Below, piece after piece: positions 3,194 through 63,327 of a stretch of 64,000 nucleotides of DNA. Position 1 is the first letter of the stretch, and each line of letters begins with the position of its first letter. Made by a program: the position numbers and the translations under genes. The DNA lies in assembly GCA_951406725.2 (NCBI GenBank), contig OX597828.1:51770001-51834000 (forward strand), in the 5' to 3' direction. This DNA is from Octopus vulgaris. Its lineage: Eukaryota. Under the pieces are notes generated by a model. It was not told the origin of the DNA, ran no database searches, and worked only from the letters and a program-made list of their open reading frames with translations.

Positions 3194-3273
<80 letters not shown>
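2998..3273. repeat. (GATA/GACA)n microsatellite
   Basis: Directly visible. It abuts the 3' end of the Tx1-like LINE. Confidence 0.95.
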
Positions 3274-3275
<2 letters not shown>

Positions 3276-3756
3276 GTTTCTTTATTAGCCACACAGGGCT
3301 GCACACAGATGGGACAATTTTGGGGATGAAAAAAAAAAGTGGTGTAGGTTTTCGATCAAAAGGGATCGTAAAGGAAAAAAAGAAAGGAAAAAATGAAAAA
3401 AAAGGAAAAGAAACAAAAGAAAAGAAAAAAGAAAGAAGAAAAATAAAGGAAAAAAGGGGAAAAGATAAAAAAACGATCAATAGGGATCGTGTATCACAGT
3501 GTCATGATGTACGGTGTAAAGGGGGAAGCAGATAAGATTTATCCGTGGGAAGAAAAGCCTACGAAAAAGACCACGGTAACCTCGGTCAAAATTGTTACAT
3601 GTTACCACGTTTGTTTGCAAGTGGGTAACCCTCTGTTTTCAATTTCTGGGTTCATAGGATTATGCTCAAGGTGGCTTCGTCATTCATACGTGCCATCCTT
3701 GCTACATTCACCCATCTTTTTTTAAAACATTCGCTAGACAAAACTTGCCTCTCTAC

Positions 3757-4883
3757 TCACACTTTCCTTTTCAAGTGATACTTGAAAAAGTTGATGAGAG
3801 ATTGACCAGAGAGGAAAGTGTTTGTCTCCAATCCTTTCAGACGCGTCAACCAGATACATTCTTTCGCCATAGCCACAAGGATGATAAAAATAGCTCTTCC
3901 TTCCCGTTTGAAGGAAGGAGGCGTGACAATATTGACGATAGACTCAGCTGATAAACCGACTCGTCCCACACGTGACAGCAGTTGTTCGACATAAGCCCAC
4001 AGGTCGGAAATTGTTGGACACTGCACGAGTGCGTGCAGAACGGTTTCGTCGCTCTGACCGCATCTAACGCAGGTCGGCCCCGTGTTTCTCGAGCCCTGTC
4101 TATAGAGCTTATCCCAAACGGGTAGCGCTTCTCGGCAGCACTGCCAAGCCAGGGATCTCTGGATGTTGTCCATGGGCCCTGGTCCGAATGTCGTCTCGAA
4201 CAGGCGGGTCAGGTATTCCTCGTTGACCTCCAGGTTCGCCCCGAGCTCGTCGTCGTACCTTCCCTCCACTAATCCCCTATAGAATGCTTGGGTTGTGTTG
4301 GAGTCACTCAAGGTCGACCCGGGACGGCAGAGTTGCTTGAGAGCAACGCGACACTCGCGGTGCCATTCGCCCTTCTCGGCCTCTTTTTGATCCACGACTG
4401 CAGTTCGGTCATGGAGACGAGTTGCGGGAAAGCGTGCCTCACAAACGGCGACTACACCTGTTCACCGTCGTCTACGTAGAGTTTGAGGTGTCGCAATCTC
4501 AGCGCGTATCTGCGCATCATCAACCACGGAAAGGCCAGTTCTCTTTTTAACGGTGTTCACAGCAAATGGATCGCCTTACCATCGGAACGAATCCTTTCCA
4601 CAAGAAGCGAAAGAGAATGCGTTCTAGTTTGGTGATGGTAGGGTCGGGACAAGGCACGACGGTCAGGCGGTAGTAGATGACGGACGCGATGTACGAGTTC
4701 ACCACCTCCACCCGACCTTTTAGGGACAGTTGCCTCTCGGCCCATTGCCGGGCGAGAGAGACCATCCTACTCGTTATCTCGTTCCAGTTCTTCTCCATTT
4801 GGAGATCCGGACCAAACCAGACCCCGAGCAAGTCGACCGGACCCTCAGTCCAGCGTCCCACGACGGAGGTACTGGTGGACGGC
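3757..4883 (-). pseudogene. Tx1-like ORF2 C-terminal region (post-RT and zf-RVT zinc knuckle), frameshifted
   Basis: LLGVWFG...W..RQLSLKGRVEVVNSYIAS...FRFLW and CVRCGQSDETVLHALVQC, typical of L1/Tx1 ORF2. Confidence 0.85.
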
Positions 4884-4899
4884 TAGGCTCATCATTCCG

Positions 4900-5629
<730 letters not shown>

Positions 5630-6830: not shown

Positions 6831-9212
6831 AAGAACACGTATTTTTGATGCCACACACATGAATTCACTCTTCTTTTTCTGTAATCGATCCTAAACCATC
6901 GTACGACATCTATATTACAATATCTCTCTCACAGAAACTGAGAAAGAATAGACACTGAAGAGAGAAAGAAGTTGTATTTGCATAATTTTACAATATATTT
7001 AAAATTTGGAAGCTAATCGAATATTAGAAATACATAGAGGATTTCCAGTACATATTTGAGGCGTGTCTACTGCTAGCAGGGACAGTCAGCATACAAATAA
7101 CGGTTTCCAGTTGAATTAACTGCATTAAAGTAAAAGTGGTTAAGACAGAGTGTATGAAGTAGTGAGCAGATTAAGCGGAGAGGCAATGAAGAATGAACCA
7201 CCTGTGACTCTTTCTAAAGTCAACATCCTCAGTAATTTCATTGCACAATCTTTTTGGTTCTTCCACTAGAGAAGACGAATAGTATTTTCTAAGCGTATGC
7301 AAAATTGCTGCCTGTGTTCTTGATCGACACATAATTTTACCAATTCTCTTCCCTCACAACAGACACACCCTTCATAATCTCTTCACGTATTTCGCTCACT
7401 TCTGCATACGCCTCTCCTAATCACTGGTATTTCAATGCAGCTATCTGATCAGAGAGCCACTACTTCTAAGGTGGGTATCACTGCTAGCAGCGGGTTGAGC
7501 GTTACCTACATATCTCGACCCTCTCTACTTCTTATATGCATTTAGCTTTCAACGTTCAATTGTTGTGTCGAAATATATGTGATCACAATTGTTCACCATC
7601 TTCAGTGATCATTATTCTTTCTCAGTTCCTGACTGAACGATTTTTCTACAGCCAAATGTTTTGGTTGTGTCTGATAAGAGAATCTGCAAGTTATTTATCT
7701 AAATACGTGTTGCAGAAATTACTTCCCCAGCAGGGAATCAGAAGTTAATTGTCAGAGAATTCCATTGCAGTGGGCATTCAATCAATGTAGGCAACGAAAA
7801 TTCTCTACTGTAGCTCATACTATTTTCTACAACATATTTTTAATCACGCACCTTTATAAACAACATTTCCAGTTTGTAATAAGCATTTTAAACACTTTGG
7901 CGCTGTCAGTCTCATCGAATATAACAGCATGTGCAAAATTATAATCGTAATCCATGCCCAGGAAATATGCTCCATAGGTGGTAGATATAACAATGGCTGA
8001 TTATCCGCAATCATATTGGATTTTCTATACTTTTTAATATCGCCTGCATTTCCCCACAAGCGAGTTACATAATTCCATTCCACAGCTAATTTACTTCATG
8101 AAAGTAATTCTCATTGCTTTTGCCAAAGGCGGAATACGTTATATCTTATTTATCTAATTTTATTAAAGAAATCATTTACTTAAAACACTTTTTTCTCAAT
8201 TAGAATTCTTAGAATCCGAACATATTTACCGGTGTAAATCATCGTCATCAAACTTAAGAAAACTTCAGTTTCCTATCACAAATAGCATTTGACTAATTTT
8301 ATTCCGCCTCTTTTAACATGTCATATCTAATTCCTATAAACTGTCCACGCAAAGTGTTTCTGAATTGTAGATTTCATTGAATTATTTCTCATTTTATTGA
8401 TAAAATCAAAATTCTGTACAGTACCTTCATTCAATATAGTATGCTATCTTTTCCTCTTCTGCTCTCCTGCCTTAAAAATAATATGAGGTGAATTGTCTAG
8501 AATGTCGGAGTTTCTTAATTTTCAAATTATTTTGTTTTCGATATCTATTATCTTAAATTATGTTTCTCTGATCAGCCAAGCGGTAATCTTAAAAACAAGA
8601 AATTTTTTTAATCGTAAACATTAACCGATTATTCCCAAGTGTATTATACACCAGAGTATTGCTGTTGTCTCGACAGATTAGTGACTACACTCTTAGGAAA
8701 TTTAACTTTCAAACACAAACACCTATGCAACTGATAGGCAAACGTTCTCTTGACAACTTAGTATGATCACTTGTGTACACCAAAATTTTCTACTCCATTG
8801 CAACCACTAGACATATACTTTACTCGGACTTGTTACGTGGAGTAACGAGTATATCTCCTCTCACGTCACTCAAGTCTTAATACAGCTGTTTTGAGTTTAC
8901 CTGAAGATCCTCCGCTGCCATTTTACAATCTACATAGATATGTGATGGTCTTTGTTACTATTTCTTAGATATACATCTCGGGCAAGAAGATCCAGTTTCA
9001 CTTGCCAGGGTTCTGTTCTGCCATAGTATTTGCAGTTGCGCTAGTGTCATGCTTTTCGCGTTGGAAAAGTGCCATTCTCAAAGATTCAATGATGATTTCT
9101 TTCTATATGTCTATTCCTGGGATGCGTGCAATCATCATCGTGATTGTGGTTGTCGCTCCTACTAATAATGTCGCCCACCTTTTATATAATAATCCTATTA
9201 ATGTGTATAGTG

Positions 9213-16015: not shown

Positions 16016-16633
16016 TTAATGACGAGAAAATTTACCTTTTTCTAGTTTTCGACAAAGACAATATTCCTTAATTCGTATCAAAAGATTTGATAAATGTTCT
16101 TTATTTTCAGCTTCAGTTGACAATACGATGATAATATCATCGATTACGCAAAGGCATATGAAAACTCCACGAGCATAATAGTCATCAGCTTTTGAAAAAC
16201 TCCCTGGGGCAGCAGACTTTATCCCAAAAGGTAATCTGTTATACTGATACAGCTCATGATGATTATTTATGGTTAAGAGCTCTTTTGATGCATCGTCTAC
16301 AGATATGTGTAAATATGCTTTTGCTAAATCAATCTTTGAAAACCATTTCTCGCCATTTAATCTTGCAAATAAGTCTTGGGGAACAGACAATGAATAGCAA
16401 TGTAGATATAATGAATCATTAAGTCCAGTAGACAAATCAGCGCATATGCGTATAGAGCCATTTGTTTTTATATTTACTATAACAATGGATGCTGCCCATT
16501 CTGAATCATTCACGTTTGATATTGTATTGAAGTTTTCTAATCTATCCAGTTCGTTTTCAGCGAGCGATAACGAGGCATAAGGTACTGGAGGCGTCGGCTT
16601 GAAAACAGGTCTGGCATTTGGTTTAAGATACAC
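16016..16633 (-). pseudogene. Gypsy reverse transcriptase remnant
   Basis: SEWAASIVIV, GSIRICADLSTGLN, FSKIDLAKAY, LYQYNRLPFGIKSA, IDDIII. Confidence 0.9.
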
Positions 16634-18612
16634 AGATGCAGTAAATTTTGTGCATATCCTAAGCCAACTTTGAAAATTGATTTGAATTCTTGCTGAAATT
16701 TTCCTCTAACGTTTGTTGTATGAAATGTGCTCAAAATCAACAATGTTTAAAAGAGTGTGCGTTACTTTATTTACTGTTATATTCCATAACACAAGGTTTT
16801 CAATCTCGTCTGTTCCGAGGATGTCCAGGTAAGAATTCTCAGTAATATAGTAGAATTCCAAATGAATGGATGTCAAGACTCTGAGTGAATAAAAATATAT
16901 TTTTCCTTTGATAACCGATGGCTGGTTGGACGCATTCTTGGTTTTTTGCTCAGTTGATAAAGTGGCTGGTTTAGTGATTTTGTGCCACGCTTCTTTAGAA
17001 ATGAGAGGAATATCAAATGCAGCGTGAAGTTGTAAGCATATATGAAATCTACCTGTCTTTACAATAATATACTTCATTTTTGAAATCATTTCGTCTTTAA
17101 ATGTGGCGTAGATTCCATTTGAAATAATACCTTCTGCAGTTGAATCGGATTCAATGACTTTTACTCTATTACTGGAATGTTTATATCCATGGTTGTAACA
17201 TTTGAGTGATTTTTTGCTCTTGTGCCGACAATATTTTGCATGGCGTTGCCTGACGCAATTCTCAACATGCTGTTAGCGGTGGCCGCGTTGCTAAGTTCTC
17301 GTAGATCCATAAGGCTGTTTAGAATTCTGCGAAATCCAGTTTTGTTTCCTTGCGGTAACTGCACAAATGCTTGGAACTATTTCATTTCCTGTGGAATCTT
17401 GAATCATTTGAGTATCATGCTTAACATTAATGAGTCGTTGTCATTCATTCCTAAATTGTTGTAAGGTAATGCCGTTGCATGTGTCCAATTTGGCTAGGAC
17501 ATGACGATTTATATCATCATAGCTTGGTGATGTAGCCCACATAAGAAAATTAGTTTCTTAAATTGGTTATCTACCGTTGTCTGTCTTTTTTATACGCCTA
17601 ACATATGCAATAAAATCTTCAGGGTGTTTTCCTAATTTCAAACATTTCTATCTGCTGTTAAAGACAACGTCTCACAGAACATGTTTCTATATTGGTCCAC
17701 TGTAGATTTAAAGTCAAATTCATTAGGATGTTTGGTTTATACAAAATTAAAGTACGTATATTCGATAAGGCCCAATTTTTGATGTAGTGTTGCTTTGATT
17801 GTTAATCAATGTAGTTGGATTTGGCTACATAAGCTTCAATGCTACAGCTGTTAAAATATCCAAATGCTGCTTGTCATGTTCTTTTTCCATTTCTTAGCAC
17901 TCTTGTTGCAGGCACAAGTTAATGAGATCTGCATAACTTTACATTTACAATAGTTGCCAAATGATGTTATAACGTAAGACGCATAATGCTATTGTGCTCG
18001 TGTAAACACCTCATTAACGAACGAAGAAAACACTGCAACAATTCCCAACCGGACTGCAAAATATCGAATTGTCCCTTCAATTGTCCTCGATGCAAAATGA
18101 ACCACGTGCGCCACATTAAGCGTACTGAGGGGAAGAGAATAAATCCACAATGAGTCGATCCATATCTAACGTCATCTGATACAATACGTGTGACCTCGGA
18201 CGAATGTACGTAAGCTTAAATAATAAACGATGTGGGAGTGAACAACACCACATGACAGAATCGAATCCATTGATTGGATGATCCTTAAGAAACAATGCTT
18301 CATGTCGAAACAACTGGAGTTGTCTTACTAATTATTGAAATGCGTTCTTCCTATGCCCAGGAAGTTTGAACATTTCAGGAACTATATAACGGTGAACTCA
18401 AACGCAGGACAGTCTGCAAATAGTTTAGCTGACCGAAATTTCAAAGTCACTTTCAATATTGATTGTCTGAAAAATTATATTTCTGTACCAACAGCATTGA
18501 GTAAACTTTCAGTTTATTTTAAAATTCTTTCATGTATAATTTAATATGAAATAAACGTCAAAATAGATATATACACGCATACGTACCTTTCATACATGCG
18601 TACATGTATACG

Positions 18613-20651: not shown

Positions 20652-21317
20652 GATGAAAGAAGTCACCCCCACCTGGTGGACGCCCGGGAGGAGGTTTTGA
20701 ATGAGAAACCTGCCCGGGAAGTGAACCCAGGTGCAAGTTCTCCAACCGGCAGCAAGGGACATGGAGACGGAGAACCCGGTGAAGAGGTAGAGGGAGGAAG
20801 AAGAACTAAAAGAAGGACTGGAAGAGCTAAAGGAAAAGAAAAATCTCAAGCAGGACCAAAGGGTGAAACAACCAGGAATAGAAGTGGAACCGCAAAAGAT
20901 AGAACCAAACAGCGCACACGGGTGTGTATGTTCTACCTGAGAGGTTCCTGCTGGCATGGAAAGGAAGGTGCAGGCTGCCGCTTTGCACATCGGGGACCCT
21001 GCCACAGAGACACGAGGCAGATGGACAAACCATCAACACAAAGAAAAGGGATGGACCACGCACCACCTGCCCCAAAGCGGAGGTACGCAGATGTTGTGCG
21101 CGCCACAAACCGCCAACATGATGTTGTCGAAAGAGCAGCTGCTGAGCAACAATCTTTTTTGTGCATGGCACAAAAGATTGTACAGCAGCTGACCTGGCTT
21201 CATCAAACCCAAGCCCGCAGGTGGGACTATCCACTATATACCAGACCACCACAGCAAACAGACACAGGATGGACACCGCCGGCAACAACGTACACCTCAC
21301 CTCGATGCTCCTACTGA
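20652..21317 (+). CDS. LINE ORF1 C-terminal part with CCCH zinc finger (5' end missing)
   Basis: Open frame DERSHPHLV...[22 protein letters not shown]...SPRCSY*. Confidence 0.7.
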
Positions 21318-24249
21318 ACATCAGAGGACTGCAAACACTCAGTAACAGGACAAAGATCCCGTTCCTGAGAGACTTTGTTGCATGCAATCAAGCCTTATGC
21401 ATAGCACTTACAGAAACGCACCTGAAACCGGACATAGCAGATGCGGAGTTACACATACCACAGTATGCTGTACTACGGACCGACAGGAAAGAAAGGAGTC
21501 ATGGAGGTGTTGCTATGTACATCCGGGAGGACCTCACACCCCAGGTCCTCTTGTCATACTCAAACTCGGTGTGTGACACACTAATTGTACATATTAGGCA
21601 ACTTGATGTAGTTGTGTGTGCTACATATCGCCCTCCAGATGCCCCAAGCCATGTGGGCAAGTTTGAAGACTGCCTTATAAAAATAGAAGAAATTCTAACC
21701 ACATTAGAACAACACATAGGTGTGCTTCTTATGGGAGACTTCAATCTGCCCAATGTCAGATGGCCCGAGGGCCTTTCTCTCCCAGGAATGACAAGATGTG
21801 AACGAGGACAGGCGAGGTCCCTCCTGAACCTCATCAACACCCTGTACATGGAGCAGGTAATACTCCAACCAACCAGGGCAGGTAACACACTGGATCTCTG
21901 CTTCACAAATGACATGGATCTCATCCATAATGTGAAAGTGACACCGACACTACTCTCGGATCACAACATGATAGAGCTGACCATGTACGGGCCAAAAGAG
22001 AGCACGGACATGCAGCCTACAAGAAACCCTCAAAATATTTCCAGCTTGAACTACCATAAGGCAAACTGGAAACAAATTGAGAAAGAGATCCTCAAACAAA
22101 ACTGGCCTAAATGTCTCTCCTCGCCAGACATCGACGTGAAACTTCAATAATTCATGTCTGTAATGCAAGCCATATGCTACAAATGTGTCCCAGAGAGAAA
22201 GGCCACTGTACACAAGAACAAAATCCCCAGAGAGAGGGAAATTTTAATGAGACGGCGTACGAAATTTTCAAATCGCCTAAACAAACAGATTGAAAGCAGT
22301 GAAAAGTCCCGCCTAAAAATAAAACTGCTGGAAATCGAAAAATGTCTGCAACTCTCCCATGAAAAAGAAAGAGCAGACAAAGAAGCCTGGGCTATAGAAA
22401 ACATAAAATCTAACCCCAGAGCTTTCTACAGGTATGCCAAAGAAACAGCTACAGTTCACTGTAGAATAGGGCCACTCCTCGAAAAGGATGGCACACTTAC
22501 AGGAAAACCAATGAGGGTAAGTGAAATACTGAATGAGCAATTCAAGAGTGTTTTCACTCCACCCCTGGGCATCTCCAAATCACCAATCCAACTGACTTTT
22601 TTACCACTGCAGATATAAAATCAGAGGCGGCGACGATAGATTACATCGATATAAAGGAAGACGATGTAACCAAGGCTATAGATGAAATGAAAACAGACTC
22701 AGCTACTGGCCCCGATGGATTCCCGGCAATCCTCCTAAAAGCATGTAAGAGAGTCCTAGCAAGACCACTGCAGTTCCTCTTTCAGAGCTTCCTTGCAGCT
22801 GGCAAACTTCCAGGAAAACTGAAGGAAGGTAAAATATGCCCCATTCATAAAGGAGGTAGCAGAGCGGAAGCCAAGAACTATAGACCTATCTCTCTGACCT
22901 CACACATCAGCAAGGTCATGGAACGAATAGTCAGAAGGAAGCTGATCACCTTCCTTGAAGAGAATGACTTGCTGCCCGACACCCAACATGGTTTCCGACC
23001 AGGGAGAAGCTGTTTAACTCAGCTCCTACAACACTATGACTGGGTGCTGAAACGGCTGCTCAACCACTCAAATGTGGAAGTGATATATCTCGACTTTGCA
23101 AAGGCCTTTGATAAAGTCGATCATGGAATGATATGTCACAAACTGCGTGATCTCAACATAGTTGGAAAACTGGGAGAATGGCTTCATGACTTTCTGAAGG
23201 ATAGAAGTCAGGTGGTAGTAGCCAATGGGGCCACCTCCATTAACACACAAATAGTGAGCGGTGTTCCGCAGGGCACTGTTCTGGGACCACTACTGTTCAT
23301 AATGGCCCTCTCAGACATGCCCTCAGCCACGCAGAGAGCCACGATCACAAGTTATGCAGATGATACAAAAGTTTCACAGGCAATACAGAACCCTGAGGAC
23401 ACTAAACACCTGCAATGTGAGCTGGACGAAATATACAAGTGGGCTGAAAAGAATAGCATACAGTTCAATGCTGGAAAGTTTCAAGCTTTATACTATCAGC
23501 ATGCAAAACTGAATGCAATACCCAATGAATACACTGGACCCGGAGGGATTGCAATCCCAGAGGCACAATCAGTGCGTGACCTGGGTATTCACATGAGTGA
23601 TGACGCGACCTTTCATGTACATGTTGCTAAACTGACAATGAAATGTAGACGGCTGGCTGGATGGATTCTTAGAACCTTTAGAACAAGAGAACAAGAAACC
23701 ATGATGGTCCTCTGGAAGACACTTGTCCTGAGCTACCTTGACTATTGCTCTCAGCTATGGTCACCATCCAGTGTCAAGTTGATCACAGAACTTGAGGCGA
23801 TCCAACGAAGCTACACGAAGAAGATAGCCTCTATGCAGAATGTAAGCTACTGGGAAAGACTCAAGAGATTAAAATTATATTCCCTGGAGCGTAGGCGGGA
23901 AAGATATGCCATAATATACATCTGGAAGATCCTGGAGGGAAGTGTCCTGAACTTTGGCATCGAGAGTTACGCAAATGCCAGAACTGGGCGCCACTGCGTG
24001 GTGCCTAGGACTCCAAACCTGCCAAGATTCTGTGACAGCCTGGGCTTCCGAGGCCCACAGCTCTTCAATATCCTCCCGAAGAACCTGAGAGACCTGCATG
24101 GGGTGGATACAGATGTCTTTAAAACGAAGCTGGATCTCTTCCTGTCAGGTGTCCCAGATGAACCAACTTCACGGCAGGAGGGGCAGATGAGGGCAGCTGC
24201 ATCGAACTCTCTCTTGCACCAAATAGCAGTTGCTAGAAAGCCTCCATGA
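21269..24249 (+). pseudogene. LINE ORF2 (apurinic endonuclease + reverse transcriptase), one nonsense codon and one frameshift
   Basis: NIRGL, LTETHL, YRPP, GDFN, LDL, SDH; then YRPISLTS, QHGFR, DFAKAFDKV, GVPQGTVLGP, YADD. TAA at 22148-22150, frameshift near 22570-22620. Confidence 0.92.
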
Positions 24250-29716: not shown

Positions 29717-29908
29717 TGGGGGCAAGCTTGTATGATGGTTAACGATTCGGAAGAAAGGCTAGGCAATATTTCTTCCGGCTATTTACATACTAGGTTCAAA
29801 TTCCACCAAGGTCGTATTTACCTTTCATGCGTTTAGACTACATACAATAAATACCAGTTGAATACCGGGGTTGATGTAATCGAAAACTTGCTGGCCTAGT
29901 GCTAAATT
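29717..29908 (+). mobile_element. old diverged copy of the Meta-like SINE
   Basis: ggttcaaattccaccaaggtcgtatttacctttcat...ataccagttg...ggggttgatgtaatcga aligns with 40523-40753. Confidence 0.65.
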
Positions 29909-39735: not shown

Positions 39736-40522
39736 CTATAAATTATTGCTGGAACAGCAAGAAAATGGTATGAGAAAATTTATTTTTGTACATTCAAAAT
39801 TCCCTAATTTTCAACGTGCTTTTTTTGTAACGCATTCTACTTCTGAAGTCTTATTAGAAAATATTCTTTAAATGTAATGTAAAAAAATTTATGAAAGTGT
39901 CTACAACCTTTCCGGGAGGATCTCTGTGTTAATGTTTTGTAAATCGACTGATTTGGGTGAAATGTAGAAGCGCCGTTATATGCTACGAGTTTGTGTTTTA
40001 CTCTGTTGTAAGGATTCGTTTGTTGTTTGTATCACGTTGAGTATTTATTATGTTGAATATCCCTTATTTGAATCATGTTAAATTCTTGTGTTTATCATGT
40101 GTACGTAAGAAACGTCATATGATAGGGAACGTTGGTTTGTGACTGCCTGAGATGCTTCAGGTGATGTAGTGTTCTGTTTTGATAATACTTCGTATAAATT
40201 GAGTTGTTTTCTAATATCGATAATTGTTAGCGTGGGATACAGTCTGCCGGAACTAATTCAAAAACATAACAGAATTATAAGATTGATTATTTGAACAAAA
40301 TTCCTAAAGTTTTGAAACTTAATAATTCTTCGAACTCAATGGAAGAATGGAGGTATTATCCGTGCGCCGCAAGACGGCGTAGGAGAAGACGAAATATGTG
40401 GAGAACTAATGCTATAGGAAAAGACAACGATAGAGAGAATGGGAGGGAAAATCAATGTGAGCGGAACGGTTAGAGTTAGGTGATGTGAATAGCGTGAGAA
40501 TCAGACGGTATGAGAGGAGATA

Positions 40523-40753
40523 AGGCGGCGAGCTGGCAGAAACGTTAGCACGCCGGGCGAAATGCTTAGCAATATTTCGTCTGCCACTACGTTCTGAGTT
40601 AAAATTCTGCCGAGGTCGACTTTGCCTTTCATCCTTTCGGGGTCGATTAAATAAGTACCAGTTACGCACTGGGGTCGATGTAATCGACTTAATACTTATG
40701 TCTGTCCTTGTTTGTCCCCTTTATGTTTAGCCCCTTGTGGGTAATAAAGAAAT
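40523..40753 (+). mobile_element. full-length Meta-like SINE with Tx1-type tail and probable TSD
   Basis: ggcggcgagctggcagaaacg head; gaggtcgactttgcctttcatcctttcggggtcga core; tail ...cttgtgggtAATAAAgaaat. Flanks tatgagaggagat (40509-40521) and tatgagaagagat (40757-40769). Confidence 0.9.
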
Positions 40754-41699
40754 GGATATGAGAAGAGATGTCAGTTCCTAGTAGAAATAAACTCTTTTGG
40801 GAATTGAACATAAATCTGAATGAGAATTTGATGAAAGATTACAAGAAAAATTTGAATAAAAAATAAACATTTGGGCCGAATATATTTTCTCGAATTAATT
40901 TATTATGTTGTAAAATTCTCCTAGAGTTAGTTGCAACTCTACTGTAAATCTGCTTGCATAACATTGTATAAGGATAAGTAAAATATGGCAAAATCTTAAT
41001 ATCAGACTTGATGACAACTGTCTGTTTCTCATTGCTAATTTGTTTTAGAATTTTAGCGGCAGAAGAGGCACTGAGACTTTTCTGTAGCGGGTATTTATGC
41101 TGACCAAATATAAGCGGCCTAATGTGATCTGCAGTTAAAACAATAACAAATTCATCCCATAAGCTCATTGTTAAATCTATGATTGGTGAGAATAACTGAG
41201 CATCGTAAAAAAACTAAGATTCAACCAAATCAAAAAATGAACCCAAATACTAAGCGAACAAAGATGAACCATCCCACCTCCATTCCGCGCGCACACGCAT
41301 ACATACATTTACATATACACACATATTCACACAGAGTTGAAAGGCTGGTTGATTAATTTTTCAGCGTACAATTTTCATCATCCCACTACCAAATATGACA
41401 TCACTCCTTGTTCATCTATCATCTCTCCCTTTCTCATTCCTAAACACAACAATATTATTATTTCAGATTATGTTGGTATGAAAAAAATACAAATACCTGT
41501 ATCACCACCGGATCATTCTACACGTGTTTAATTTTTCGCGCAATTCCACCCATCCGTTTAACCGTGAATCCCATGACAAGAAAGAATCGCCCATGTCAAA
41601 TTTATATATGTATATGAATTTAGATACTATCTGTCTGTTAAAATAGGATATTTCCCTTGTCTAAGAGAAGAGAATTTTGAAACAAATGTTTTACTGTAT

Positions 41700-43495: not shown

Positions 43496-44425
43496 GGTGG
43501 CAGAGAGAAAAGTTAGGACGCCGGGTGAAATGGTTCGCGGTATTTCGTCTGCTGTTATGTTCTGAGTTCAAATTCCGCCGAGGTCGACTTTGCCTTTCAT
43601 CCTTTCGGGGTCGATAAATAAAGTATCAGTTTCGCACTGGGGTCGATGTAATCGACTTTATCCCTTTGTCTGTCCTTGTTTGTCCCCTCTGTGTTCAGCC
43701 CCTTGTGGGTAGTAAAGAAATAGGTATTTCGTCTGTCAATACGTTCTGAGTTCAAATTCCGCCGAGGTCAACTTTGTCTTACACCCTTTCTGAGTCGATT
43801 AAATAAGTACCAGTTACGCACTTGGGTCGATATAATCGACTTAATCCGTTTGTCCCCTCTGTGTTTGGCCCCTTGTGGGTAGTAAAGAAATAGGTATTTA
43901 GTCTGCCATTACGTTCTGAGTTCAAATTCCGCCGAGGTCGACTTTGCCTTTCATCCTTTTGGGTTCGATTAAATAAGTACCAGTTACGCACTGAGGTCGA
44001 TTTAATCGACTTAATCCGTTTGTCTGTCCTTGTTTGTCCCCTCTGTGTTTAGCCTCTTGTGGGTAGTAAAGAAATAGGTATTTCGTCTGCCATTACGTTC
44101 TGAGTTCAAATTCCGCCGAGGTCGACTTTGCCTTTCATCCTTTTGGGTTCGATTAAATAAGTACCAGTTACGCACTGAGGTCGATTTAATCGACTTAATC
44201 CGTTTGTCTGTCCTTGTTTGTCCCCTCTGTGTTTAGCCTCTTGTGGGTAGTAAAGAAATAGGTATTTCGTCTGTCTTTACGTTCTGAGTTCAAGTTCCGC
44301 CCAGGTCGACTTTGCCTTTCATCCTTTCGGTATCTATAAATAACGTACCAGTTGCGTCATGGAATCGATCTAATTAACTCGCCCCTCCCCCAAAATTTCG
44401 GGCCTTGTGTCTAGAGTAGAAAGGT
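43496..44425 (+). mobile_element. tandem array of five Meta-like SINE units
   Basis: Units restart at GGTATTT at 43538, 43723, 43893, 44077 and 44261. Four carry the Tx1-type tail, the last has a different tail. Confidence 0.92.
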
Positions 44426-45801
44426 TTATTCTGATAAATCATTTACGGTATTAAATACACGCAAACACATGCACGGGTGCACACACACACACACATATAT
44501 GTATGCAAATAATATGCATGTACGTACGTACATATGTATATATGTGACTGTGTATAGGTGTGTGTGTGTGTTTTGTGTGTATGTGTGTGTGTGTGTGCCT
44601 ATGTATATTTTACGCATCAAATAAAAGAGGAATTCGTTTTACCATTAGCTATGTATGACAGAATACACTTTATGACTATAGAAAAGAAAGGTATATTTAC
44701 AACATCGTTGGGAGGTTCAAATGGGAAAGTACAGAGAAGTATAATGAATGGAAGACTATAATGGAAACCTGCAACAGAGCTACTTAATCGGGTGAACAAA
44801 AGGCATAGCAGAAAAATATCAATTGACGTTGTTGAAAGATTAACGAGTAAAAACAGAAAGGGAATCATTGATGACGGCTGCCAAAAGTTAAGAAAAAAAA
44901 TCCTAAATCTTTGTCGATGCAGAAATAGACTAAACTAGTAAAATAAGTTAGAGCTGGATTTATGGTAATGTTCACAGAATGATGACGATCATATAAGTTG
45001 AAACACTGTAGTAGTGATATTATTGCAAAGGGTAAATGATATAGGTTGGTTAGTAGCGAATATGGATTTACAATAATAGGAAACTGCACCAAAAGAATCA
45101 GAATGCGAAACGCAATGATCAAAAGGGATCAAGTCGGGGATTATTTACAACATATATTTGTAAGCATTATATCAAGACCAACATTAACCAAAGTACTTTG
45201 CATTTTCCAGTGTTAGGGTGTAATTTAAAGGGTTTGTAGTTACTCTTTCTACTCTGTATGCCGATTATATAACTCCCCTTTTCTTTTCAATTTTGTTATG
45301 AAAGTGATTCTTGCACGAGTCTTTGGTATTTATTCTTCTCTTGACCAAACAAGAGTGAATAAAAAAGCAGATGTGATGGTAATAAAGACGATGTTTTGGG
45401 ATAATGATAGAGATCTTACTCGAAGTTTAAATAACCAAACCGGGGTAAATGTTAGAGAAAAGTATAAAGCAGTCTTGGAGTGGACTGCCAAAATTGTATG
45501 GGAAACGCATATAAAATATATGTGCGTGTGTGCGTGCGCGTACGCGGGTGTGCATTAAAACTAAAATCACAAACGGGAAGAAGCTATAGTGTATGTCTCT
45601 GATACAGTATAGCCTCGTTACAAGCTTCTAGAAATAACATTTTTTGCAGGAATTTGCTTTATGTAATCTTAAGAGATGTGTTCAATGTCGAACATATGTG
45701 ATGGTCACTATCATCGACTTCGACGTATGAGTTTGAAGGAGTAGATTTACATTTTAAAAAAGCGATGGAAAAAGAAACTTTAAAAATTAAAGAAGCTGTG
45801 T

Positions 45802-48509: not shown

Positions 48510-49120
<611 letters not shown>

Positions 49121-62978: not shown

Positions 62979-63201
62979 GGCAGAAACGTTAGCGCGCCGG
63001 GCGAAATGCTTAGCGGTATTTCGTCTGTGTTATGTTGTGAGTTCAAATTCCGCCGAGGTCGACTTTGCCTTTCATCCTTTCGGGGTCGATAAATTAAGTA
63101 CCAGTTACGCACTGGGGTCGATGTAATCGACTTAATACCTATGTCTGTCTGTCTTTGTTTGTCCCCTCTGTGTTTAGCCCCTTGTGGGTAATAAAGAAAT
63201 A
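62979..63201 (+). mobile_element. Meta-like SINE with Tx1-type tail, slightly 5'-truncated
   Basis: Same family as 40523-40753; followed immediately by GGTATT. Confidence 0.9.
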
Positions 63202-63327
63202 GGTATTGAGCAGAATATTTGATGCGGCCCATATTTTTACACCAAGACAAAACATTGTACATGATAACACTTCCGATCAGTGAAGATCAGAAGCTATCAG
63301 AATCACTGCCCGGTACTGCATCAGGGC

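Follow-up and report, generated by a model that had tools for sequence, protein, structure and literature searches.

Nested SINE arrays at a GGTAT site in the head of related SINEs in Octopus vulgaris

Several retroelements described in other animals bear comparison with the octopus arrays reported here, as far as the accessible portions of the papers concerned go. SINEU-3 of crocodilians strongly prefers one site in Mariner-N4, leaves a target-site duplication (TSD) of ~16 bp, forms tandem copies by sequential insertion and is mobilised by Tx1-type LINEs, Tx1-Mar (PMC4494074); family-specific microsatellite targets are presented in the same source as typical of Tx1, with Kibi, Koshi and crocodilian families among them. 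When R2 RNA carries upstream 28S sequence, its cDNA has been proposed to anneal to the upstream target and so to give uniform joins, a minority of which duplicate upstream sequence (PMC3774820). Assays on R1Bm and SART1Bm indicated that priming is helped by short stretches at the RNA 3' end that match the target (PMC7265360). Tandem arrays that combine a single complete head with repeats truncated at the head are on record for a SINE of the clam S. broughtonii (PMC11481361) and for squamate SINE-derived satellites (PMC10702118).

The octopus SINE is like SINEU-3/Tx1-Mar in preferring one site within a repeat and in its tandem sequential insertion. However, SINEU-3 targets another transposon, Mariner-N4, whereas the octopus SINE targets its own head; SINEU-3 tandem copies sandwich a TSD, whereas octopus joins are mostly seamless and head-less; and a Tx1-Mar LINE occurs at the SINEU-3 site, whereas the octopus searches gave no LINE at the site of the SINE (PMC4494074). 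The upstream-duplicating joins of R2 resemble octopus cases with two heads (PMC3774820), although R2 is autonomous and targets rDNA while the homology available to the octopus SINE lies in the element's own head. For R1Bm and SART1Bm, 3'-end pairing was demonstrated by assay, whereas in the octopus SINE it is indicated indirectly (PMC7265360). The clam and squamate arrays are explained in the available text mainly by unequal recombination, with no fixed insertion motif, whereas each octopus unit retains its whole tail and ages vary from unit to unit (PMC11481361, PMC10702118). No paper in the literature searched dealt with an octopus SINE that nests at one defined position in the head, a body that leaves most subscription papers and Repbase outside its coverage, and the words 'nested' and 'target' each occur 0 times in the accessible text of PMC13282606, whose supplements or repeat library may annotate these arrays.

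The window is the whole stretch of DNA analysed, 64,000 nucleotides of contig OX597828.1 (assembly GCA_951406725.2, positions 51,770,001 to 51,834,000, forward strand). The array within it consists of one 43-bp head, four core/tail-A units and a terminal core/tail-B unit:

43496-43538 (+): SINE head, the 5' part up to the GGTAT site, present once, 43 bp
43539-43722 (+): unit 1, core and tail A, 184 bp; B box at 43564; ends AAAGAAATA
43723-43892 (+): unit 2, core and tail A, 170 bp, with a 14-bp deletion
43893-44076 (+): unit 3, core and tail A, 184 bp; TTTT run at 43957
44077-44260 (+): unit 4, core and tail A, 184 bp
44261-44430 (+): unit 5, core and tail B, 170 bp

An earlier sequence-only reading had described five units whose tails are followed directly by GGTATTT, with the 5' part of the head in the first unit only and a different tail on the last. 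This description holds, all four internal tails reading AAAGAAATA followed by GGTATTT and the last unit bearing tail B; the start it gave, 43496, also stands, while its end at 44425 falls short, as the last unit reaches about 44430. Compared with the copy at 40524, the A-box region of the head is ~5 bp shorter (deletion damage). Unit 1 is young, at 0.034 from the family majority, and unit 2, which diverges by 12-16% from its neighbours, is thus likely to be a separate insertion. Units 3 and 4, already noted as near-identical, differ at 1/184 bases, remaining unit pairs being 11-16% apart, and are likely, judging from the bases themselves, to be a DNA-level duplication, with assembly error also possible; in the comparison made for the empty site and for units 3 and 4, none of the contigs from four runs spans the array, where they break off. 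Both carry the TTTT run, and such a run could stop Pol III. Unit 5 lies 0.086 from the majority; it is the older sister-family SINE and would be the original host of the array.

The family has several features of a tRNA-type (Pol III) SINE. An internal B box and an A-box-like head are present: B-box-like GAGTTCRARTYC occurs in 5/5 units, and A-box-like TGGCAGAAWCG in the heads was recognised by eye against the general consensus. Searches with ARAGORN and Rfam gave no match to a tRNA. Copies are dispersed and numerous, with TSDs of about 10-22 bp, and the tail is common to a LINE, 41 bp being 85% identical to a LINE in the window, with a closer LINE-end match at locus L161.

The junction seen in the array recurs throughout the genome. 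The last 24 bases of tail A have 77,480 exact matches in the 2.8 Gb assembly, and AGGTAT directly follows 40,973 of them, AGGTATTTYGT following 24,004; other continuations include AGGTATV (5,503), AGGTATTV (3,273) and AGGTAC (2,299), while reversed-pattern controls of the tail junctions gave 0 matches. Of 75 tails with a core directly behind them in the DNA examined, 65 kept the exact register, and in 5 the join lay 33 nt upstream of it within the head. A variant with a GAAATA repeat before GGTATTT accounts for most of the first 100 of 1,591 matches listed (e.g. G000:C1:3617158; L006, L009, L196, L300), and resembles the outcome of slippage as reverse transcription begins, or else a tail variant passed on by descent.

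Three solitary copies in the window bear on whether GGTAT belongs to the element or to its target:

40507-40769 (+): full-length SINE (40524-40754) with 15-bp target duplications; the upstream duplicate starts GGTAT
62979-63208 (+): solitary SINE inside another repeat family, at GGTATTG; empty paralogues compared
48510-48738 (-): solitary SINE in (TA)n; ends AAAGAAAC, like the (TATC)n LINE family

The duplicated flank attributed to the first of these is confirmed as a 15-bp duplication with 2 mismatches, GGTATGAGAGGAGAT / GATATGAGAAGAGAT. The second, reported at 62979-63201 as followed by GGTATT, has GGTATTG directly 3', and empty paralogous sites of this copy carry GGTATTG at the insertion point in 9/11 cases. 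For wider samples, TSDs were anchored solely on bases 8-15 of the 3' flank and then read backwards, with microsatellite flanks and head-less copies left out. Among copies chosen for AGGTATV, a TSD was anchored in 15/31 (shuffled control mean 0.16), and the upstream duplicate carried GGTAT in 13/15 and a preceding TA in 1/15. A less biased sample was drawn mostly from the first 20 Mb of contig C1, as stretches of 3 kb and 10 kb with a tail match at the centre, and was completed by 20 stretches of 10 kb chosen at even spacing; its 3' flanks were unselected and arrays were over-sampled. Here a TSD was anchored in 28/87 (shuffled control mean 0.65, maximum 3), and the upstream duplicate carried GGTAT in 8/28, against an expected 0.0012 per site, and GGT in 12/28. 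Together, the upstream TSD copies and the empty paralogues place the end of the SINE at AAAGAAATA and show GGTAT to be target sequence, as had been proposed for the recurring GGTATT; the converse possibility, that GGTATT is part of the SINE, is ruled out by the same evidence. Overwriting of the first target bases by the RNA was also considered and showed no bias, GG matching in 16/16 upstream versus 14/16 downstream, of 28; L050, L313 and L332 are single cases hinting at overwriting and are not decisive.

Junction counts, two-head loci and TSDs all show that the SINE prefers a defined site, and the preference is loose. Among 131 terminal ends AGG follows in 52 and AGGTAT in 25, and 79 are without even AGG, which agrees with the earlier caution that specificity is not absolute, drawn from the copy at 48510 in (TA)n, itself borne out.

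GGTAT is also present within the head, at 47 nt from its start, both in the tail-A SINE and in its tail-B sister family. The proposal that the SINE carries the target site and inserts into relatives gains support from loci with a second head: the pattern of a site and second head has 164 matches genome-wide, and in 22 of 29 distinct loci checked a full-length copy lies between two copies of the SINE site, the remainder being 2 ordinary non-SINE sites and 5 other structures. The duplicated sites often share locus-specific variants on both sides. Of such two-head cases 10 lie at tail junctions, no more than roughly what the share of these sites would give, a point against the reading preferred below.

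Ages of units were compared in seamless arrays ending in tail B, from which two-head loci and duplicates of a locus had been taken out. The first unit of these A...B arrays diverges by 0.039 and the last, tail-B unit by 0.097, the last being older in 20/22 (p=0.0002) and the two uncorrelated; solitary A and B copies give 0.034 and 0.090. Last tail-B units differ by 18% between loci, with a minimum of 9%, and a single dimer master is therefore rejected. The GGTAT-bearing B subfamily makes up 20/23 typed B last units versus 21/42 solitary copies (p=0.003), a host control that is weakened by the greater age of the GGCAT-type B subfamilies (0.11-0.13 vs 0.07). It had been asked whether arrays always end in the other tail type, and they do not: final tails among 63 arrays are A in 38, B in 16 and other in 9, where the chaining of units itself means that non-last units are never tail B.

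We consider the array to be a series of tailed SINE copies at the GGTAT of an older relative's head, probably produced by repeated target-primed insertion in which the cDNA pairs with the host head to give a seamless join (probability about 0.58). On this reading, with an element ending at AAAGAAATA and a duplicated target beginning GGTAT, as the TSDs show, an L1/Tx1-type LINE endonuclease of the tail-sharing group would nick at GGTAT, perhaps assisted by read-through RNA ending GGUAUU; the endonuclease of R2 is of another type. The pentamer would be met in the heads of the SINE and its tail-B sister, where full-length copies with duplicated sites do occur. In most events the cDNA end would then anneal to the host head upstream of the nick, in the manner suggested for R2 (PMC3774820), and replace most of that head, and annealing would allow integration to be completed far more often than at unrelated sites. 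Every insertion would recreate the site, so that arrays could grow, and some units, such as 3 and 4, would later duplicate as DNA. That read-through RNA can exist is indicated by a solitary copy (L068:+, near 5023) in which 29 nt of the following unit stand ahead of the target duplication, a 3' transduction; it is the only clear read-through copy in 381 ends.

Per-site rates were taken from 200 kb holding 315 generic GGTAT, 11 sense SINE, 176 generic GGTAC and 22 antisense SINE sites. The sense head site is used ~67 times (38-135) more than generic GGTAT, so that a short motif alone is insufficient. The antisense GGTAC site of the same elements has 641 junctions, ~3x over generic GGTAC, a comparison that counts against the rates of the pairing model in that the control motif is GGTAC rather than GGTAT and the sites are few (11 sense, 22 antisense); an ordinary duplication and a full head are present in about half of 20 antisense loci. 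Rough totals after correction for pattern capture are ~61,000 nested, ~930 two-head and ~1,900-2,500 antisense insertions, the two-head form being no commoner than the antisense.

The most serious rival, though an unlikely one, is that the partner endonuclease, or pairing by 3' read-through RNA, reads a longer head-like sequence, so that each insertion starts with two heads and the extra head is lost by recombination between ~62-bp repeats. Each sister LINE family has its own flanking sequence, and non-SINE sites show a 1.8x preference for T as sixth base; if further bases add like this one, a preference for a longer sequence could account for a large part of the excess. A tail subfamily containing AATACCTAT, the complement of the junction, is also the more GGT-specific, its solitary copies lying at GGT in 20/28 against 17/42 and 1/23 for two other tail variants. 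However, non-SINE targets have no consensus past about 6 bases, the searches made found no LINE at GGTAT, and ~98% of second heads would have to vanish, yet 64-65-bp head repeats persist and even expand. Tandem runs of a 64-65-bp unit of head and duplicated site are found at G000:C10:17996023-17996506 and at L186. An array of a different type, at L317-L320 (G000:C1:12697585-12698357), has four full-length copies with the same target duplication between them and a 247-bp period. Pairing of the cDNA is favoured over later loss of a head because the repeats of head and duplicated site persist and because the two-head form does not outnumber the antisense one.

The composition of the heads is less discriminating. 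In A...B arrays the head is host-like over nt 0-15 (0.194, with solitary A at 0.091 and B at 0.242) and donor-like from nt 15 on (n=18), positions 60/62 being of donor type in 15/18. The suggestion that an inserted copy regains its A box from the host copy is not upheld in that simple form, as only the first 15 nt are host-like in these arrays and the head of the window array lacks ~5 bp of the A-box region. The host-to-donor gradient fits pairing, and also a later deletion between two heads by crossover. Just past the junction the last unit is host-type, with A-type bases in 5/21 versus 4/23 in solitary B, and an extension of donor sequence into the last unit was rejected for want of any excess over solitary B. 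Over nt 100-138 divergence is higher in the first units of A...B arrays (0.065) than in solitary A copies (0.037), an excess that fits neither pairing nor later head loss.

A bolder and distinctly doubtful proposal is that the SINE RNA steers its own insertion, AATACCTAT and read-through sequence guiding a loosely specific LINE enzyme, and that tails have switched from an A-box site to GGTAT in an RNA-guided homing loop. Copies with GGGCART tails join the A-box site AGAAWCGTTAGC at 2,115 junctions, of which 20 were read, all SINEs, and which make a second self-insertion site; GGGCAAT tails lie at GGTAT in 0/22. In a folding of one copy, run without a shuffle control, AATACCTAT and six read-through bases close a 9-bp stem (-13.8 vs -9.5 kcal/mol). 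Subfamily age or partner could equally link the AATACCTAT tail with landing at GGT, and steering by RNA therefore stays the bold case. If it were true, both sites would lie inside the element's own head and the homing loop would be self-reinforcing.

That the arrays arise at the DNA level, with an existing dimer as the template when a nick or break at GGTAT is mended (gene conversion, homing-like), or through unequal crossover, is improbable as their general origin. Near-identity within 2% is found in 10/94 adjacent A-A units, compared with 0.7% of random pairs, and units 3 and 4 of the window array and a satellite-like run point the same way; however, the other 84/94 lack near-identity (median 7%), donor-type bases do not continue beyond the junction into the last unit, and two-head copies with TSDs require insertion. 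DNA duplication thus contributes a minority, in line with the 10/94. The run (L020, G000:C31:9542158-9545341) comprises at least 17 consecutive 184-bp units and is a SINE-derived satellite. Least probable is that dimers are composite SINEs copied as a single transcript from a few masters, or products of template jumping: head and first unit are correlated in age in A...A arrays (Spearman 0.41) and the L068 copy is a read-through, but last B units are 2x the age of first units with between-locus divergence as in solitary B, and template jumping would predict full-length units rather than GGTAT-cut ones.

The pattern is real and genome-wide, has firmer support than the sequence-only reading could provide, and would present known Tx1-type targeting and homology-assisted joining in a new form. 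The joining of the 5' end is the least understood step of non-LTR retrotransposition, and a single site with natural events in the tens of thousands makes the contribution of homology measurable, with two-head, antisense and generic sites as built-in controls. The arrays also offer a route from SINE to satellite through insertion instead of recombination, and repeat annotation will name them as dimeric families and misdate them.

The tail said to be of Tx1 type is common to an L1-superclade LINE group, represented in the window by one broken copy:

3270-5530 (-): LINE, 5'-truncated and broken, with zf-RVT and part of the RT, in (TATC)n; its final 41 bp match SINE tail A at 85% identity

The family of this copy is abundant, with many intact 1149-aa ORF2 copies (loci L081-L110, L151-L170), and ends AAAGAAAC(A/T)TATC in (TATC)n-type flanks. 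ORF2 of the group contains endonuclease (PF03372), RT (PF00078) and zf-RVT (PF13966) domains by Pfam, its best PDB match is human LINE-1 ORF2 (E 7e-53), and a zf-CCHC match in ORF1 is weak (E 0.0032, below the curated cut-off). Among named relatives of the protein the best comes from Argonauta hians (69%), and none of the 120 homologues listed, nor of the Atlas matches listed, is named Tx1; judged by domains and similarity, the group belongs to the L1 superclade and is a Tx1-type candidate. A second family (ORF2 of 1145 aa, 76% identical, with a related tail) lies in (ATT)n at 30/30 sites. Both recovered families thus sit in microsatellites and neither at GGTAT, which leaves the earlier suggestion that GGTAT is the target of the partner a conjecture; targets of this kind recall Kibi and Koshi, although the repeat units (TATC)n and (ATT)n differ from theirs (PMC4494074).

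The search for a partner was made with exact patterns and covers the matches listed. Genome pattern searches gave no LINE with the exact SINE tail or at GGTAT: 5 matches to a LINE-like tail followed by AGG were all SINEs, a further search gave 2 matches, at most one of them read, and no LINE, and in a 36-match search the 3 read were all SINEs. Two larger searches, with 273 and 1,591 matches, showed no new LINE family within the first 100 listed for each, 22 candidate LINE-end matches were by appearance shifted SINE tails, and L015, considered as the partner LINE, is a truncated SINE instead. Searches with P0001 and P0002 both gave the (ATT)n family. For tail B, 11 of 128 matches lacked a core, and no LINE end was seen by eye among these 11. 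That these searches brought no LINE to light at GGTAT also tells against the pairing model.

Other observations concern neighbouring repeats. The young (ATT)n LINE family forms head-to-tail runs with a 5.87-kb period (L268-L307, e.g. G000:C4:93803118-93828600), and at L156 a sister LINE end is followed by (AGAT)n. An old SINE fragment, duplicated nearby, lies within the 3' untranslated part of a LINE copy (L247:-, near 8879). The window contains a second LINE at 21146-24249 (+), with endonuclease and RT frames by Pfam in a (TA)n-flanked region and only 25% identity to the tail-sharing group, as well as degenerate frames at 16016-17272 (-) that by eye resemble LTR-type pol. At 29767-29883 (+) there is an old SINE core, 73-76% identical, with a different tail.
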